Source of the DNA: Spirochaetia bacterium
GTDB taxonomy: Bacteria > Spirochaetota > Spirochaetia > SZUA-6 > Bin103
Reading direction: 5' to 3'
Length of the DNA: 64,000 nucleotides
NCBI GenBank assembly: GCA_965203905.1
Contig: CBDBDQ010000005.1
Span: 2,144,001-2,208,000 of the forward strand
Shown: positions 15,023-22,542 of the stretch, one piece after another
Position numbering within the stretch: position 1 is the stretch's first letter
Layout of the letters: every line of letters starts with the position of its first letter
Program-made: the position numbers and the translations under genes
Notes under the pieces: model-generated
Databases searched by the model: none
What the model saw: the letters and a program-made list of their open reading frames with translations, nothing else
Told to the model about the DNA's origin: nothing

Positions 15023-16204
15023 TCATTTGCCGTTCTTCAACCTGAATGCGGAAACCACTTCCTGTTTAATCAATCCCCTATGACCCTTTCGTTTGGGTGC
15101 AAGCGTTCTACTTTGGATTCTGTCTTCGAATCGGTCGAACAAGCGAAAGTTCATACTCTCCAATATCTGGTTTAGTGCGTCCCATGTGAGGATTCTTCGT
15201 CCTCCCACAAGGTTATCGCCACAGACTAGTATTAGGGTGCCATCCGGCGCAAGTAAATCCTTAAACGAGAGGAATGCCATCTCCATATCCCGAAAATACC
15301 GATGGACAATAGCCGCACGTTTCATACATTGAATTTCAAGTTCTCTTAGTTGAGGAACCAGTTCTCTTCTATGCTTCGACTGTTCATCATAAACTAGAGA
15401 AGTACTAACACCTCGCTCTGTACCTATGAACTCCCGAATAATGCAGTCCACACGGAACGGCAACAAGCCCTCGAGCATGTAGAGCTCAAGTTTCGCGTTT
15501 CTAAAGTAATCCTGAGCATTGACGTACGGAGGGGAGGTGATGACATGTGAACACGTAAACGAATCCCTATGGGACCGCGCCGCATCAATGACACTGATGT
15601 GATGCACACTTGGGCCAACGTCTTGCGGGTCTCCGTAGAACCTCGAGAGTTCACTAAGGACGCTCTGAAGGACGATCATAGGATCAAAATGCTTCCCTTT
15701 TCGTACCCTCCGCGCTTCCTGTGAAATAAACGGCTTAGGGCTACGCTGGTCGGACCGTGAACACGGGCGGACGGAGAGCCCCATCGATAGGAGCACTCCA
15801 CGCCCCGCTGCCGTATCATTGAGTCCCATCTCCGACGCTACGAACCGGATCTGCTGGAACTTCCGTAGTGTGGCGGGTGTGAACCAATATCTCGCATTAC
15901 TCCAGGCTAGGGGCAGTTCTTTGCTCGAATGAGCGCGACATACGAGATCGTCGCAAAGCCGCCTTGCTTCGTCAGCGTCGAACCCCTCAATCTTTACCTG
16001 CGATAGGAGAACGCCAAACGGATTGATGTCCATCCCAGAGACCTTAAGGCTCTCTTTGCGGGCGGCGTAGAGTACCGCTCCGGATCCGCAAAACGGATCG
16101 ACCAAGTGGCTCGCATCACTAGCATACCGAGTGACGAGTGTTCGCGCGAGATGTGAAACCATCTTTCCTGGATAGCGGTCTATGCGCGCGGGTGGAGATG
16201 TCAT
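15023..16204 (-). CDS. DNA methyltransferase (amino-MTase, probably N4-cytosine)
   Basis: YPGKM, motif I DPFCGSG before motif IV TSPPY; ATGA overlap with the upstream gene. Confidence 0.88.
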   Translation of the reverse strand: MTSPPARIDRYPGKMVSHLARTLVTRYASDASHLVDPFCGSGAVLYAARKESLKVSGMDINPFGVLLSQVKIEGFDADEARRLCDDLVCRAHSSKELPLAWSNARYWFTPATLRKFQQIRFVASEMGLNDTAAGRGVLLSMGLSVRPCSRSDQRSPKPFISQEARRVRKGKHFDPMIVLQSVLSELSRFYGDPQDVGPSVHHISVIDAARSHRDSFTCSHVITSPPYVNAQDYFRNAKLELYMLEGLLPFRVDCIIREFIGTERGVSTSLVYDEQSKHRRELVPQLRELEIQCMKRAAIVHRYFRDMEMAFLSFKDLLAPDGTLILVCGDNLVGGRRILTWDALNQILESMNFRLFDRFEDRIQSRTLAPKRKGHRGLIKQEVVSAFRLKNGK

Positions 16205-17142
16205 TCTGGGCAAAAAATTATCCATCTGTTCCCAATACCGCGGGAATAGTAATGGAGATTATGTCGCAATACCTGCGAGTAGATCAAAGAAGGGGGGTCC
16301 GTACACTCGCGGATGTAGGTGTACGCTCCCACTGCTTGGGGCTTGGGTCCAAGGGGACACACGGCACGACGAAAGTCCGAATACACGCGGACATCACCCA
16401 AGACGCGACTCAGAACCCTAATCGTCGAACTAGGATCAATAGCATCAGCACGATCCACACAGGACTGGTCATCAATCGTAGCCACAAGGTTGCGATTGAG
16501 ACGTTCCGTTCGGCCCTTCCACTCAGGACGGAACGGCGGGTCTGGCACGATGAGCGTCGTGCGCTTCGGCTGGAGAATCTCATACGTTGAAAGTGCGCGG
16601 TCGCCTTCGTATCCCAAGAGCATCACAGCGTGAAGTGGCCGGCTCGGGTTGGCAGATGGAGCAAACCCCGGGAGCAGCGTCACGGATGACACGCCGAACG
16701 AAAGGGGCAATCGCCCTTTGATCTCATACTCTTCGGGTTCGCTGTATACTATCCAAAGACGATCCCAGAGTCCACAATCGTCAAGAAGTCGTAAAAGAAG
16801 GAGGAGAGTGCGTTTCGACATCACCGAGATATCCACAACTACCGGGCGACTTCCACTCTCTCGCAAGACGGATCGAAGAGGGCGGTGTCCATCGGCCGAT
16901 GTCTCCGTGATGCAACTCAAGGAAAGCTCCACGACCGGCGATCGCGCTTCTAACATGGATAGTAGCGTCATTCGATGCTCGTAACCCGAAGGTGTCTCCT
17001 CTTCGTACCCGAACAAAATGGTCTTCTTGGGAACCCAATCTTCACAATCTCCCAAGATCCCGAGACATCGCGGCTCGTGACTTGAGCACACCAACAGCAG
17101 GCAGTCCTGTGGAAGTAACTCTTGATCAAATACCGCCTTCAT
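16201..17142 (-). CDS. Hypothetical protein, possibly tandem CARF-like/Rossmann domains
   Basis: Two beta-loop-helix units (VVVDISVMSK, VCPLGPKPQAVG) and LLGYEGDR; coupled between ATPase and MTase; fold is inferred. Confidence 0.55.
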   Translation of the reverse strand: MKAVFDQELLPQDCLLLVCSSHEPRCLGILGDCEDWVPKKTILFGYEEETPSGYEHRMTLLSMLEARSPVVELSLSCITETSADGHRPLRSVLRESGSRPVVVDISVMSKRTLLLLLRLLDDCGLWDRLWIVYSEPEEYEIKGRLPLSFGVSSVTLLPGFAPSANPSRPLHAVMLLGYEGDRALSTYEILQPKRTTLIVPDPPFRPEWKGRTERLNRNLVATIDDQSCVDRADAIDPSSTIRVLSRVLGDVRVYSDFRRAVCPLGPKPQAVGAYTYIRECTDPPSLIYSQVLRHNLHYYSRGIGNRWIIFCPE

Positions 17143-17147
17143 AAGCC

Positions 17148-19284
17148 CTACGACCCATTCTCTCCAAATGGAAGTTGTGCACTGAGATCAGATCGGTGCC
17201 TACGTTGGGACCAACTTCCTACGAGAAGACTCTTTGTCGTCCTACGATTCTCTTTGTCCAACAGCCCCAACAACTGAGAGCACCCCACCGTAGTTCTCCA
17301 TCTCAATCGTGGACTGATCTCAAGTGTCGGCGCAAAAATACGTGAAATATTGATCTCCAGTGGCTGTGGATCTTCCACATGCTTTGGTCGTATACCCGAT
17401 CGTCCTTCAAGAACTTGAAAAACCCCTTCCTTAATCCCTATACCGATCATCTTTCTTAGCAACTCGTAGTCGCTCTCCAACAGCATCTGAGGATCTCTAA
17501 TGGCAAGGCGTGCCGCTTCAGGCTCGCTTGAGTGGTGAAGCAACTTTTGTCTAAGACAATCCCCTAAATCAAGCAGAAAATCCTTAAGCTTCTCACCATA
17601 CGTCTCTATATTCCGGCTAAGTGTTGCCAAATTATGTACCGACACGACATGAACAGCCTCCGATTGAAACTCCGGATCTATCGAGAAAAAATCACTCATC
17701 TCATTCGACTGCAAGTGATATGCCATGAGAAGGACCTCTTGAAAGTAGCGAATGACTCCAGAGCTAATAAATGCCAACTCCTTGTACCCAGAGAACCGCT
17801 TCTTTGTCCGCCTCCCAGGGCTACCATAGAGCTGTCGGTAAATTGCCGCCTCGCGATAGTAGGACAACTTCGCATCCTGAGTACGTACGTCCCAAGAATC
17901 AAACTCCCGCCGATCAATCCGAAGGAGCCGAAGTGTCTCTTCAACGACTTTCTCTCGGGGAATTTCGTCGTCACTGCTCTCTGGAAGAAGCCTCGCAAGC
18001 GTCGCTGGAGCGCCTTCTCGCGTTGTAAGAAGTTTTCCTACCATGTTCTCAAGGAGCCCGATGTATCGCTCGAAGTCAGAGTCATTCTCTACCGAGTAGA
18101 TCAGCGTCACCCTATTGTAATCATGCGTCTCCTGGAGCTCTTGTCCTTCGGTAGTGTCCGAGACTTCTTGACTCCCTATCTTTCGCGCTACTTTGACAGA
18201 GATCGTAGGCGGCCCGAGCTTAATGAGACTGTTGACCACAACTTTCTGATATGAAAGGAGGTTCTCATACTCATCTAACAGAATCGTGATTTGACTACGC
18301 GACAACGACCGAACATTCCTTCGAACTAGGTTTACGACCCGTCTAAAGGTCGCGAGTCCGAAGGACGCGAACGGAATGGAGGTAGCCTCATCGTAGATGA
18401 ACTTCCTGCGGACGAATTCCGCCAGTTTGAGGTGCATATCTGCGAAGTGCTCTAGCAGATCCTCAAAACGTTCAAGCGTGCTCTCGGTCTGTGGAGATAG
18501 AACACCGGCTATCGACCGTACCAATGTCCCCTCAGAACGGCTCCCGAGTTCTAGTCTATTGGCACGCGTGCAATGGGAGATCTCTGACACCATACTCTCA
18601 ACAACACCAAGATAGAATTCCTGAGCGAAGACATCAGTCAGTTGTGCGAGTGTCTTGGAGTCGAACGGTACCGAGAGATCGTCGACCTTAAGAGAGGTAC
18701 CAGCATTGCAGAAGGCACCCCGTTCAAGGCGAACGTAGCAACCAAAGAGCTGACGAAGAGTCTTCGGTGAATCCGAGCGAGCGGAAAGAATACGAGCCCT
18801 CAGAGATAGCAAAAGCATAGTCTTTCCGGTGCCACGGGAACCTTCAAGAAAACAAGGTTTCATCTCCTCGAGAACTCGTATCTTAGCTGCATCTGGCGGA
18901 GAGAATGATGAGGCCAACAGTGTTGGGTTATCCTCTTCAAAGTACTCGGCCCGAACCCGCCAGAAGGGGTTTAAGGAGTCCTCCTTTAGTGCTGCACTGA
19001 TAGTTGATGTGTCTGAGATTGTGTCAGAAATCTGAGAGCACAGTTGCTCGAGCGTATGTTGGTAGTGCTCATCGTCAACACTCCCATATACGTGGGTGCC
19101 TATAAGTGGAGGTAGCTGAACAGACCCATACTTGAGGACGATAACGCTTCCGCCATCTTGGCTGACACGATTCCATAACGCGGCGGATATCTCAAGTCTT
19201 TGCCAATTGGCGCCATGGGTGTTCTTTGAATAGATGACGATTATGGTGTGAGAATTGGCAATTGCTTCGTTCATAAATTCTATT
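17148..19284 (-). pseudogene. 3' part of TIR-domain + ORC/CDC6-like P-loop ATPase gene, interrupted by a mobile element
   Basis: TIR second half (IEFMNEAIANS..IIVIYSKN...WQRLEI); Walker A GSRGTGKT; Walker B ILLDEYEN. Confidence 0.85.
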
Positions 19285-19464
19285 GAACTAAACCGCTTCG
19301 CGGTAGGGGTGGCGTCGGCCGTGTCGAGGCGCGGAGCCCTTCCCAAACACAATCCCTACATGGTGTCTGGACTCTACTAACGGGAGATGGGTGGTTGCCC
19401 CCGGAGCGTAGCGCCGCTCCGGAGGCTGATGGACCACGCGTCTCTACACGAGGAGGAGTCCATC

Positions 19465-20307
19465 ATGACACCACTGCGCCAGAGAATGATCGAAGACATG
19501 CGGGTGCGCAACCTGTCCCCGCACACCATCGAATACTACGTCCGCCAGGTCGCGTTGTTTGCCCGCTACTTCAACCGCTCTCCGGAGCTGCTCGGGCTCG
19601 ACGAAATAAGGGCCTATCAACTGCACCTGGTGCAGGAGCGAGAGCTGGCTTGGGGTAGCTTCAATCAGGCAGTCTGCGCCCTCCGCTTCCTGTACCTCAA
19701 GACCCTCGGCAAGGACTGGCACATCGAGTCCATCCCGTTCGCCAAGCAGCCCAAGAAGCTGCCGCTGGTCCTGAGCCAGGACCAGGTACGCTCGCTACTC
19801 GAAGCGATCACCAACCCGCAGCACCGCGTCATCGCCATGACCCTGTATGCCGCCGGGCTGCGGGTTTCCGAGGCCGTCTCCCTGAGGGTCACAGACATCG
19901 ACAGCAAGCGGATGCTGCTGCATGTCGTGCAAGGCAAGGGCCGCAAGGATCGTTTGGTGACGTTGTCGCCGCTCCTGCTGTACCACTTGCGCTGCCACTA
20001 CCAACGCTATCGGCCGCGCTACTGGCTGTTTCCCAGCAGGACCTATCCCGACCGCCACATCACCAGGGACGCGGTGGCCAACGCCATCGCCGCGGTGCGC
20101 CACGTCGTCGCCGGCAAGCCCGTATCCCCGCATACCTTGCGCCACTGTTTCGCCACCCATCTGCTGGAATCCGGCACCGATCTGCGCACCGTCCAGGCGC
20201 TGCTCGGACACGCCTCGATCAGGAGCACCGTGATCTACACCCACGTCACCCGCAAGCGCATCAGCGCGGTCGAGAGCCCGCTGGAGTCGTTGCCACCGCT
20301 GCGCTGA
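19465..20307 (+). CDS. Tyrosine recombinase/integrase
   Basis: GAGGAG RBS; GLRVSE, GKGRK, HTLRHCFATH, LLGH and IYTH catalytic residues. Confidence 0.95.
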   Translation: MTPLRQRMIEDMRVRNLSPHTIEYYVRQVALFARYFNRSPELLGLDEIRAYQLHLVQERELAWGSFNQAVCALRFLYLKTLGKDWHIESIPFAKQPKKLPLVLSQDQVRSLLEAITNPQHRVIAMTLYAAGLRVSEAVSLRVTDIDSKRMLLHVVQGKGRKDRLVTLSPLLLYHLRCHYQRYRPRYWLFPSRTYPDRHITRDAVANAIAAVRHVVAGKPVSPHTLRHCFATHLLESGTDLRTVQALLGHASIRSTVIYTHVTRKRISAVESPLESLPPLR

Positions 20308-20314
20308 GCTCCCA

Positions 20315-21529
20315 GTGCAGCAGCCCCCGTTCGAGGTGGCCGACGTCATCCGTACCCTGGCTGCGGCCGATGGTCGGGTGCCGGGGTTGCGGGTGTCGCA
20401 GGCTCAACAGCGCGTCCTCGGCGACCTCGCAGCCTGTCGTACCGCCAAGCTTGGTGGCCACGTCGATGCCTGCGATGCCTGCGGTGAGCTACGCGTATCG
20501 TACAACTCCTGCGGCAATCGCCACTGTCCCAAGTGCCAGGCGCAGCAGCGCGCGAAGTGGCTCGAAAACCGTTGCCAAGATCTGCTGCCGGTCCCCTACT
20601 TCCACGTCGTTTTCACCCTGCCGGCAGAGCTGGCGCCGCTGGCACTGCAGAACCAACGCGAAATTTATGGCGCCCTGTTCGCTGCCGCCGCCGCTACCCT
20701 CAGGACCATCGCTGCCGACCCCAACCATCTCGGTGCTCAGATCGGCTTCATCGCCGTGTTGCACACCTGGGGTCAGACCCTGGTGCACCATCCCCATCTC
20801 CACTGCGTCATCCCGGGTGGCGGGTTATCCCCCGACGCTGCCTCCTGGATCTCCTGCCGTGACGATTTCTTCCTCCCGGTCCGGGTCCTCTCACACCTCT
20901 TTCGCGGCAAGATGCTGGCCGCGCTCCAGCAACGCTTCGCTGCCGGTCATCTCCACTTCCACGGTGCTGTTGCTGAGTTGGCAGATCCCGCTCGCTTCCG
21001 AACGTTGTGCCGGCAACTGCGCCGCAAACGGTGGGTGGTGTACTCCAAGCCGCCCTTCGGCGGGCCCCAGCAGGTGCTCAAGTACCTGGCTCGCTACACC
21101 CATCGTGTCGCCATCGCCAACCGCAGGATCACGGCTGCCGATTCGGACTCCGTGAGCTTCCGTTACCGCGACTATGCCCGTGGCCGCCGTCACCGGGTGC
21201 TGAAACTCGACACCGTGGAGTTTCTGCGTCGCTTTCTGCAGCACGTCTTGCCCAACCGTTTCGTCCGTATCCGCCACTACGGCTTTCTCGCCAATCGTGC
21301 ACGTAAGGAAAAACTTCCGCGGTGCCGCTATCTGATTGCCCAAGCCTCCGGCCAGGACCTGATCACTGCGCCTGATCTCTCAGTTTCTCTCGAACCTCCC
21401 GGCGACGATCATCAACGCTGTCCGGTGTGCCACGCAGGAACCATGCGCCGCATCCAGGACTTCTGCTCTCAACCCACCTGGGAGTATGAGTACCTGCCTG
21501 GTCGCCGCGCTCCCCCCGAGGCCGCATGA
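20315..21529 (+). CDS. IS91-family (Y2 HUH) transposase with N-terminal zinc-binding domain
   Basis: CDAC...SCGNRHCPKC, HVVFTLP, HTWG, HPHLH (HUH), YLARY and RIRHYG. Confidence 0.95.
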   Translation: MQQPPFEVADVIRTLAAADGRVPGLRVSQAQQRVLGDLAACRTAKLGGHVDACDACGELRVSYNSCGNRHCPKCQAQQRAKWLENRCQDLLPVPYFHVVFTLPAELAPLALQNQREIYGALFAAAAATLRTIAADPNHLGAQIGFIAVLHTWGQTLVHHPHLHCVIPGGGLSPDAASWISCRDDFFLPVRVLSHLFRGKMLAALQQRFAAGHLHFHGAVAELADPARFRTLCRQLRRKRWVVYSKPPFGGPQQVLKYLARYTHRVAIANRRITAADSDSVSFRYRDYARGRRHRVLKLDTVEFLRRFLQHVLPNRFVRIRHYGFLANRARKEKLPRCRYLIAQASGQDLITAPDLSVSLEPPGDDHQRCPVCHAGTMRRIQDFCSQPTWEYEYLPGRRAPPEAA

Positions 21530-21769
21530 CTCCATCTCCAGAACACCATCCGTTCGATCTCATCACGCATCCCTTCGCGCCGCCGTGCCGTTGCTCCTGC
21601 GCACCCGTGCGCGGCGCCGGCCGCGAGCTCCCCGTCAGCCGCTCGTCGCTGCCTCATCGCTTGGCGCTGTCACTCAGCTCCCCGTTCTGCTCCGCGAGCC
21701 CGCGCCTGCCCGGGCACCCCCAGCACTCCGCCGCCACCGGGATACCGGCGTTCCAATCTCCATAGGCGC

Positions 21770-21891
21770 GCGGTTTAGTTCAATCAACCCTATCCGAACT
21801 GGCCCCGGCCACGCGGCAACGGCCAGCGTTCGCCGTTCGCGCGGCCAGCTCGGATAGACTCCTTCTCATTTCGGATAGACTCCTTCTCATT
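21770..21891. repeat. Structured right end of the element: 15-bp inverted copy of the left end, 15-bp inner stem and 21-bp tandem duplication
   Basis: gcggtttagttcaat (21770-21784) is the reverse complement of 19282-19296; 21790-21804 pairs with 21843-21857; tcggatagactccttctcatt occurs twice (21850-21870, 21871-21891). Confidence 0.9.
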
Positions 21892-22019
21892 ATGTCGTGA
21901 CCGAACTTCAGTTCATGCAAATCGATGTAGACGTCATGACCTGCCATTCTCAAGTCATCATGGAGTCTCGTAGCAATCTCTGCGTCTTCGTCAGCGTGAG
22001 AGATGAAAATGTGCTTCAG
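21892..22019 (-). pseudogene. 5' part of the TIR-ATPase gene (TIR N-terminus)
   Basis: Translates as LKHIFISHADEDAEIATRLHDDLRMAGHDVYIDLHELKFGHDI, a typical TIR start; GAGGAG precedes a CTG codon; not in the ORF track. Confidence 0.85.
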
Positions 22020-22542
22020 TTTCTCGGGCTCCTCAGTCGTGTGATTTGAGTGTTGAACAGATCGCGGAAGGTGCGCGGATACTCCCTAAGTGCTAGGAAT
22101 CGTCTGCGAATCGTTCGGTTGTGGTGTCGAATCTCTGCAGTCGGCGATTCCTCCCTCCGGTTGGAACGGCACCATAGTGGCTGGCCTGGTACTGAAAGAG
22201 GTGTAATGGTCGCATCAGTTACACCCCGTAGGATTAGTGACCGATCTATGGAGTTGTCGGTGAAGCTATGGGAGAGGTTGAGATGAGCGTTATAGCTTGG
22301 TGCTCGTCCAGCATGTATTGGCAGGGTGCCAAACATCAGATTTCGTGAAGAACGTTAACTCGCAAGGATGTTGGTCTGCGTGCTTCCTCGCGCCAGTGCC
22401 GACCATGATCGGTGCAGTTCAAGCTTGATCTCCTCAATGGAGCGAGAGTCATAGACGTCAAGACTCTTCACCTTCGGTACATCACGGTCGCCAAGGGGTC
22501 ACGGACGAGGGACTCGCTGATGACACCGTAGCACGATTCTGA

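Follow-up and report, generated by a model that had tools for sequence, protein, structure and literature searches.

Tyrosine recombinases cut duplexes and HUH nucleases normally cut single-stranded DNA (ssDNA); integron integrases (IntI) with attC sites and Xer recombinases with CTX-type phages use folded single strands. In CTX-type phages, two inverted half-sites separated by about 90 nt pair when the genome is single-stranded, and the folded site recombines with dif; this single strand is made by an HUH replication protein from tandem prophages. Members of the IS200/IS605 family, e.g., IS608, read their cleavage sites and target by pairing with guide bases beside the end hairpins. For the insertion sequences (IS) of the IS91 family, a 2026 study (PMC13181058) describes a terIS with one palindrome by a cleavage tetranucleotide (GTTC or GTCC, and CTCG in IS91) and an oriIS with one or two palindromes, the target tetranucleotide flanking oriIS downstream of tnpA and resembling the ter cleavage site. 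The same study reports that double-stranded IS91 circles form but do not insert, only the bottom-strand single-stranded circle doing so, that the transposase TnpA by itself inserts this circle, and that Orf121, encoded upstream of tnpA, is a regulatory accessory. Here, we analysed an IS91-family element with an additional tyrosine recombinase gene in a stretch of 64,000 nt from a Spirochaetia bacterium (the window; contig CBDBDQ010000005.1, positions 2,144,001 to 2,208,000 of the forward strand, in a genome of 8.0 Mb with 66% G+C). Sequence comparison suggests that in this element and its relatives a conserved, covarying architecture ties the terminus, the joint of the two ends, and the target together and sets the group apart from canonical IS91.

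Two same-strand genes 7 nt apart lie within 19282–21891 (all coordinates are window positions). The first (int, 19465–20307, plus strand) encodes an IntI/Xer-like tyrosine recombinase of 280 aa (PF00589, 2.5e-36; PF13495, 3.6e-22) and the second (tnp, 20315–21529, plus strand) an IS91-family HUH-Y2 transposase of 404 aa (PF04986, 3.1e-67; PF14319, 1.9e-30; NF033538, 439.5 bits with a cutoff of 125). We are confident that 19285–21870 is an intact two-gene IS of 2,586 bp of the ISAzo26 type within the IS91 family. Its terminal 21 bp (21850–21870) are repeated exactly in tandem at 21871–21891 (plus strand), the final ATT included. Three sister copies in the same genome, 99.8–100% identical among themselves and 91% identical to the window copy, all span GAACTAAACCGC to ..GACTCCTTCTC and are alike through ...CTTCTC, beyond which their flanks diverge. 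Since these copies carry the 21-bp end only once, stopping at the equivalent of 21867/21870, the unit is 19285–21870 and the duplication is private to the window copy. Among the public sequencing data (21 runs, all available as contigs, of which X1, X2, X3, and X5 were compared with the locus), the repeat contigs of run X1 start at 19285 and end at 21869, and one X1 contig covers 21841–22250, duplication included, with zero differences, although it may share the source of the window.

The gene pair itself is of a catalogued kind, as two plasmid records show. The best match in a plasmid collection (53% transposase identity) is annotated as ‘IS91-like element ISAzo26 family transposase’ and has a tyrosine recombinase gene directly upstream of the transposase gene, as here within one element and in the same order, and a Sinorhizobium plasmid copy holds the same int and tnp pair. 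Further IS91 members with an upstream tyrosine recombinase are presumably listed in ISfinder/TnPedia. The ends of ISAzo26 (Aromatoleum copy) are likewise similar to those in the window, with a left flank ..GTT, GGAC plus a palindrome, an inverted copy about 250 nt past tnp, and a hairpin, so that the window element differs from it only in sequence divergence, host, and the 21-bp terminal duplication. The element thus belongs, as an ordinary member, to an IS group that has a name but whose mechanism is unstudied, and the idea of a mobile cassette in the earlier note does not hold, as no cargo is carried. Our full-text literature search, which covered papers without their supplements, brought up no study of what the recombinase does in ISAzo26-type elements or of how their ends are built, and as far as we found, the covarying relation of terminus, guide, and target and the joint hairpin are undescribed.

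In a scan of one genome per species, relatives were encoded in 320 stretches, and we retained the best 80 for analysis (loci are designated by L numbers). Acidobacteriota contribute most of them, while others bear labels such as Planctomycetia, Rhodothermia, and Betaproteobacteria; protein identities are 40–55%. A near-full-length int lies directly upstream of tnp at 67 of the 80 loci; elsewhere the match is partial or split, and at L054 there is none. The chromosome of one Terriglobia metagenome-assembled genome (L044, L047, L050) contains at least 21 copies of a 2,506-bp relative with about 99.7% identity, and at three of 21 loci in this genome the copies stand head to tail, joined as ..AAGCG-TTT/TTA-GAAC.., a natural source of the joint sequence. 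Contigs at least 90% identical to parts of the window element were found in the public runs X3–X14, which are labelled coral, sponge, and other metagenomes or stem from four further organisms, and close relatives are thus spread beyond the source genome.

The left end of the element resembles terIS (19285–19311, plus strand) and consists of GAAC, 3 nt, and the palindrome ACCGC-TTC-GCGGT (19292–19304), its first 12 nt forming the left inverted repeat (IRL); similarity among the four copies in the genome begins here. The earlier note had seen that the 15-bp left end, counted from the flanking ATT, has a perfect inverted copy inside the right end. This repeat is indeed present (19282–19296 with 21770–21784) and is the sole perfect one of at least 15 nt among 25 listed of the 73 inverted pairs found in 2.8 kb. 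The internal copy comprises the right inverted repeat (IRR, GCGGTTTAGTTC, 21770–21781, plus strand) and the putative guide bases AATCA beside it (21782–21786, plus strand), which are complementary to the terminal and target motif; their AAT (21782–21784) pairs with the target ATT at 19282–19284 (plus strand), the left-flank copy of a 3-nt motif that occurs once in the empty site derived from orthologues of the interrupted gene. There follow the large hairpin of the oriIS-like right end (21790–21857, assigned to the minus strand), whose arms at 21790–21807 and 21840–21857 are 18 nt long and 89% complementary, corresponding to the inner stem reported before, and then the linker ACTCCTTCTC with the terminal ATT (21858–21870, plus strand), the right terminus of the single-copy element. 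About 240 nt (21526–21765) separate the tnp stop from IRR in the window, and a 79-aa open frame there is probably spurious; in relatives the distance is about 250–370 nt.

Every subfamily has the same order of parts, i.e., left-flank motif, GAAC/GGAC with 3 nt and a 5-bp palindrome, two genes, IRR, guide, long hairpin, a linker of about 10 nt, and the motif repeated at the terminus, and GAAC/GGAC plus the palindrome is conserved in the 62 related elements scored. The motif itself comes in three classes: ATT/GTT (window element, L009, L010, L012, L016, ISAzo26, and Sinorhizobium), CGTTT (L020, L063, L074, and the Terriglobia genome with its many copies), and GAC-NN (most Acidobacteriota elements). 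In each class the guide is the reverse complement of the motif, and ATT, taken by the earlier note for a minimal target, is only the version of a 3–5-nt motif that belongs to this subfamily. The left flank was compared with the guide at 61 distinct insertion sites, and for positions −5 to −1 the two agree at 52, 55, 58, 40, and 48 of these, a level never reached when guides were permuted among 16 element types (0 of 5000 permutations). RNAalifold, applied to 17 diverse right ends read as the bottom strand, gave a 19-bp hairpin and an outer 4-bp helix of terminus and guide, with compensatory changes in 17 of the 23 pairs, the outer helix included, and one conserved G.U pair. When the ends are joined, 17 positions are largely paired in 62 elements of 21 end-types, with class-specific pairs (GAC/GTC, CGT/ACG, TCA/TGA), so that the joint hairpin is kept and covaries in homologues, the comparison to which the earlier note had tied the fate of its proposal. 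The inverted copy at IRR extends into the flank in ISAzo26 (19 nt) and in the Sinorhizobium element (23 nt), and no inverted copy of the left end was found in IS91 or in an int-less IS91-family element adjacent to sul2, where the best ungapped scores of 8–9 equal background. Taken as covariation in sequence, these patterns make it probable that the complementarity of IRR and guide is functional base pairing that fixes the terminus, the joint, and the landing site.

Joined in silico, the window ends fold as one long hairpin, in which an internal loop separates the 15-bp outer stem from an inner hairpin, as the earlier note had proposed, at −48.3 kcal/mol for the top strand (−34.6 ± 3.1 for 200 shuffles, z −4.5) and −47.9 kcal/mol for the bottom strand (z −3.9). 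The unmodified natural tandem joint of L047 reaches −48.7 kcal/mol (−35.4 ± 3.3 when shuffled, z −4.1, none of 200 shuffles as good). The two strands of the window copy cannot be told apart by energy, and the bias is visible only family-wide: the bottom strand is more stable in 48 of 48 distinct right ends (mean −21.5 vs. −18.6 kcal/mol), with all subfamilies agreeing, and in 48 of 48 in-silico joints (−54.3 vs. −47.6), and G.T pairs number 95 in the minimum-energy folds of the bottom strand and 18 in those of the top strand. In control coding windows of the same length, the bottom strand was favoured in 65% of 192, with a mean difference of −0.66 vs. −2.93 for the ends. These data support the bottom strand as the one selected for folding, which matches the bottom-strand circle as which IS91 inserts (PMC13181058).

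Compared with the described systems, the element shares with IS91, IS801, and IS1294 an HUH-Y2 transposase with a zinc-binding N-terminus, the feature that assigns the enzyme to the IS91 family, as well as the lack of a true target duplication and the bottom-strand bias. As in these elements, the ter end stands upstream of the genes and has one palindrome, here next to GAAC or GGAC (GTTC or GTCC on the other strand), and palindromes lie at the other end. An IS91 copy from an Escherichia coli plasmid has CGAG and a palindrome on the left and ..CCTATCGAT followed by GAAC on the right, whereas the right flanks of the elements studied here lack GAAC/GGAC, and their 3–5-nt motif stands beside the ter-like end and recurs at the ori terminus. 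Because the conserved flank motif adjoins the ter-like and not the ori end, one defining feature of the IS91 family is missing, and the view that insertion differs from canonical IS91 stands in this respect. In addition, the elements have an extra recombinase gene where other members have none or Orf121, and IRR and guide are absent from IS91 and from the int-less element next to sul2.

Like IntI with attC, the element combines a recombinase whose best matches are IntI with an imperfect hairpin favoured on the bottom strand and a short crossover motif. Unlike integrons, it has no attI, promoter, or cassette array and encodes its own mobilising enzymes. No consensus of R and L boxes and no extrahelical bases could be established in the joint hairpin; GTTC/GAAC adjoins the crossover in the joint, and a C.C/G.G mismatch is conserved at one stem position in some subfamilies only. 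The likeness to CTX phage lies in inverted sites about 85–105 nt apart that are duplex only in ssDNA, in the pairing of an HUH enzyme with an Xer-like recombinase, and in tandem copies, but here the recombinase is encoded by the element, the target is a 3–5-nt motif rather than dif, the whole is a 2.6-kb IS, and a dif-like dyad occurs at only three of the four sites in the source genome. As in IS200/IS605, a guide 5′ of a hairpin pairs with a cleavage and target motif 3′ of it and the target equals the end motif; the element is nevertheless not a member of that family, as its transposase is a Y2_Tnp of 404 aa and not a Y1 enzyme (single Tyr, about 150 aa), the pairing is Watson-Crick over 3–5 nt, and there is an extra recombinase.

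Both enzymes are intact. R-K-H-R-H-Y is retained in 49 of 49 distinct full-length recombinases of relatives, and HUH and YxxxY with both tyrosines in 54 of 54 distinct transposases; in the window proteins, the catalytic residues include Tyr258 of the recombinase and His161, His163, Tyr257, and Tyr261 of the transposase. IntI is the closest kind of recombinase: the best NCBIfam match is the integron integrase model TIGR02249 (210.9 bits, under the cutoff of 265, with the match split at the insertion), and the best match among solved structures is Vibrio IntI4 (2a3v, 1.8e-39), where the alignment skips IntI4 residues ~181–211. By this score and the absence of the I2 segment, the recombinase does not belong to the integron-integrase family. 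A published classification (10.1101/542381) places IS91-borne recombinases in an ‘Integron-like’ subgroup that nevertheless is without the IntI insertion.

In the reading that we favour, the HUH transposase would nick the element and peel off one strand, likely the bottom one, as a circle, a step that knowledge of the family makes very likely. The terminal 3–5 nt would pair across the 19-bp hairpin with the guide bases beside IRR, as the comparison of relatives indicates, and after end joining IRR and guide would pair continuously across the ter-ori joint over at least 17 bp. The same 3–5 nt stand in the target immediately left of the element, and one internal stretch would thus specify the terminus, the joint, and the landing site. 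The IntI/Xer-like recombinase would then recombine the folded single-stranded joint with a duplex target offering the short motif, by a single strand exchange that replication then completes, as with CTX phage and integron cassettes. For this whole chain, with the recombinase acting on the folded joint, we would put the chances slightly short of even. In its favour, the recombinase is kept throughout the group, though the main pathway of a rolling-circle IS does not call for a resolvase. The inverted copy accompanies the recombinase in the int-bearing elements compared and is missing from both int-less ones, and the target motif stands by the ter-like end, two observations that count on the same side. 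Furthermore, the features that separate the group from IS91 create a duplex exactly at the joint, which favours the recombinase acting there, and the use of folded single strands by its nearest relatives, IntI and Xer, favours action on a folded joint. The persistence of tandem copies (three of 21 loci in one genome) fits a site that is active only when single-stranded.

Several observations weigh against this recombinase-based reading. In sequence terms, the covariation would fit base pairing or two inverted binding sites for one protein alike; the 48 ends and 61 sites are related and not independent, and the comparison of int-bearing with int-less elements is one of two against two. At the target, constraint is weakest on the two bases next to the junction, where flank and terminus differ at 28 of 61 sites, which is awkward for a strand swap, and there is no family-wide enrichment of target dyads such as tyrosine recombinases usually require (mean best arm 3.45 vs. 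3.35 ± 0.12 for re-paired flanks, 55 sites). Near-identical copies differ in their terminal 2–3 nt (L002/L003, L027/L031, and L084/L086), which fits neither simple model. The crossover sits toward the loop of the stem and not at its open base as in attC, a departure from the attC-like geometry that the earlier note had drawn. The recombinase lacks the IntI-specific I2 insertion in the alignments with both TIGR02249 and 2a3v, and it is this insertion that reads the extrahelical bases in IntI according to 10.1101/542381. Finally, no circle, joint, or empty site was seen in this organism, for which only assembled contigs were available, so that this says nothing on absence.

The strongest alternative is that the HUH-Y2 transposase alone nicks, closes the circle, and inserts, as in canonical IS91, with IRR and guide as a cis-acting DNA guide or splint and the recombinase as an accessory that might resolve multimers or replicon fusions or control termination like Orf121 of IS91. 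We regard this as a serious possibility that falls somewhat below an even chance. IS91 itself provides the precedent, as its transposase alone integrates the single-stranded circle (PMC13181058), and in the present group HUH and both tyrosines are invariant, the left end is a canonical terIS with GAAC/GGAC and a palindrome, and the targets have no general dyad. A one-sided target motif equal to the terminal motif of the element is canonical HUH logic, and the geometry of a guide 5′ of the hairpin and a cleavage motif about 10 nt 3′ of it resembles IS200/IS605 ends. On the other hand, this alternative assigns no necessary role to a recombinase whose catalytic residues are intact across phyla, the tandem copies are not resolved, and fixed HUH cleavage would let near-identical copies inherit the terminal 2–3 nt in which they vary. 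The ter-ori joint, moreover, would sit within a 17-bp duplex in the circle, an unusual substrate for HUH nucleases, and the target motif stands by the ter-like end, the reverse of IS91 (PMC13181058).

It is improbable that the recombinase excises and integrates a double-stranded circle like integrative elements, with the HUH protein only replicating or nicking the circle. Both enzymes are intact, a duplex joint would carry two inverted copies of the end, and double-stranded circles are reported for IS91, but the inverted sites would be about 90–100 bp apart in the duplex instead of 6–8 bp, tandem duplex joints persist, the strand-asymmetric folding points to a single-stranded function, multiple copies per genome indicate copy-out and not excision, and the double-stranded IS91 circles did not insert (PMC13181058). 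A chance origin of the inverted repeat and hairpin, or their being remnants without function, e.g., a terminator, with the recombinase gene as a passenger, is scarcely credible, since, although GC-rich DNA yields many imperfect inverted repeats such as the 73 pairs above, the architecture with its compensatory changes is conserved in 62 elements from several phyla, the shuffles (z −4.5 and −4.1) and the permutation (0/5000) are far from random, the catalytic residues are invariant, and protein identities of 40–55% exclude that the related loci are one recent clone.

Should the reading with two enzymes be right, the element would be a single-strand transposon in which an HUH enzyme copies out a bottom-strand circle and an integron-integrase-like recombinase joins the folded joint to guide-matched duplex DNA, a picture that we hold only tentatively and put forward as a well-posed hypothesis and not as a result. 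The ISAzo26 group would then represent a free-living counterpart to integron cassette capture and CTX-type integration, and perhaps their precursor, and target choice could in principle be rewritten by compensatory changes in guide and terminus. A DNA guide is a possible answer to how rolling-circle IS choose and cut their ends and targets, and if it holds, target choice might change with few bases, which would be of interest to tool builders. The architecture also bears on the origin of single-strand recombination by integron integrases, called a chicken-and-egg problem by Escudero et al. 2016 (PMC4792948), and as it links terminus, joint, and target, both the choice of ends and targets and the origin of this kind of recombination become directly testable at the bench.

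The boundaries of the insertion were set with three intact orthologues of the interrupted gene from related genomes (56–64% identity), which read ..G-D-D/N-I/L-I-D/G/S-F.. at the insertion site. From this sequence, the empty site holds one ATT, the inserted length is 2,607 bp, and GAAC is part of the element and not of the target; a target tetranucleotide GAAC was rejected, as it would yield ..GHDSSIEF.., unlike the orthologues. The earlier note had the element bounded by ATT on both sides and its removal restoring the TIR reading frame exactly. ATT is present at 19282–19284 and 21889–21891, but the flanks of the sister copies are ATT/AAA, TTA/ATA, and CTA/ATA, so that ATT at both borders is a feature of the window copy and not a rule. 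Removal does restore the frame, but a deletion of the full 2,610 bp drops one Ile. Frame restoration alone is weak evidence, since any removal in multiples of three keeps the frame; the orthologues make it strong.

Across the relatives there is no rule of target duplication either. The left flank ends in the same 2 nt as the element at only 33 of 61 sites, and a 2–3-bp duplication was discarded on this figure and that for 3 nt (31 of 61), so that ATT/ATT in the window copy stems from motif identity and not from a duplication rule. The 21-bp tandem repeat (21850–21891) sets two candidate cleavage motifs 21 nt apart, and slippage, aborted initiation or termination, and partial re-insertion are all possible origins. 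The right end ..AAGCG-CTC-CGTTT.. of L064 and L065 may be a similar irregularity. Among the 20 copies considered in the Terriglobia genome, inheritance of the junction trinucleotide gave no usable signal (11 informative sites), and a rule of TTT on at least one side (18 of 20 copies) equals the chance expectation. The left-truncated L061 and L066 were rejected as one-ended events, there being no motif at their boundaries. Many Acidobacteriota insertions (L023, L026, L027, L034, L048, L076, L085) have ..ACTTCCGG-NTN-GCCGAC-NN on the left and ..TCGGGAGT(T/A).. on the right. The 5-nt motif does not account for the length and likeness of these flanks, which may be a landing sequence present in several copies or belong to the end of a different mobile element.

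A 3.3-kb element that carries tyrosine recombinase genes in a tandem array of three (409, 375, and 330 aa) and has long inverted ends borders three of the four copies in the source genome; we take it to be of the ‘recombinase in trio’ type (C5:6314849–6318185 at L095 and C5:5305387–5308723 at L096). Its inverted ends of about 30 bp start with TAATGT and lie 1–10 bp from the ends of the three IS91-type copies, and the genome has just two occurrences of a 20-bp unit, TAATGCGAAGCGTCACATTA, both at the opposite side of an IS91-type copy that abuts the 3.3-kb element. Such trio elements were rejected as general neighbours, being adjacent at only two of the 80 loci (L033, L072), with single extra recombinases at L047 and L059. 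The rebuilt sites read CATAA-ATTCTA-TT^ATG (window), CATTA-CGCCTT-TA^ATG, and CATTA-GCTGAC-TA^ATG, with the fourth out of register. They look like an Xer/dif-type core, but this is a local lead only, as the motif was derived from the same sites, these are AT-rich islands in a GC-rich genome, and dyads are not enriched at targets across the family; CAT[TA]A-N6-T[AT]ATG occurs intact only twice in 8 Mb, with 2.3 expected. The sister copy L096 is itself interrupted within tnp by a 3.8-kb insertion (C5:5300306–5304097), which has a 6-bp repeat GCTGGA at its borders and open frames of about 540–550 aa.

The gene interrupted by the window copy lies on the minus strand. Its 5′ part (21892–22058) encodes the start of a TIR domain, with a likely GTG start near 22058, and its translation ..KHIFISHADEDAE..GHDI aligns with the N-termini of the orthologues, while the 3′ part (17148–19281) encodes the end of the TIR domain (TIR_2, 24.5 bits, below the cutoff) and an ORC/CDC6-like ATPase (PF24389, 1.4e-55). 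Intact orthologues were present in three of 40 related genomes searched, as open frames of 757–795 aa. The 313-aa gene that follows (region 16201–19281, minus strand) matches CARF-type models of PADLOC (best 4.6e-22), and together the TIR/ORC-CDC6-like and CARF-like genes look like a defence module that was inactivated by the insertion.

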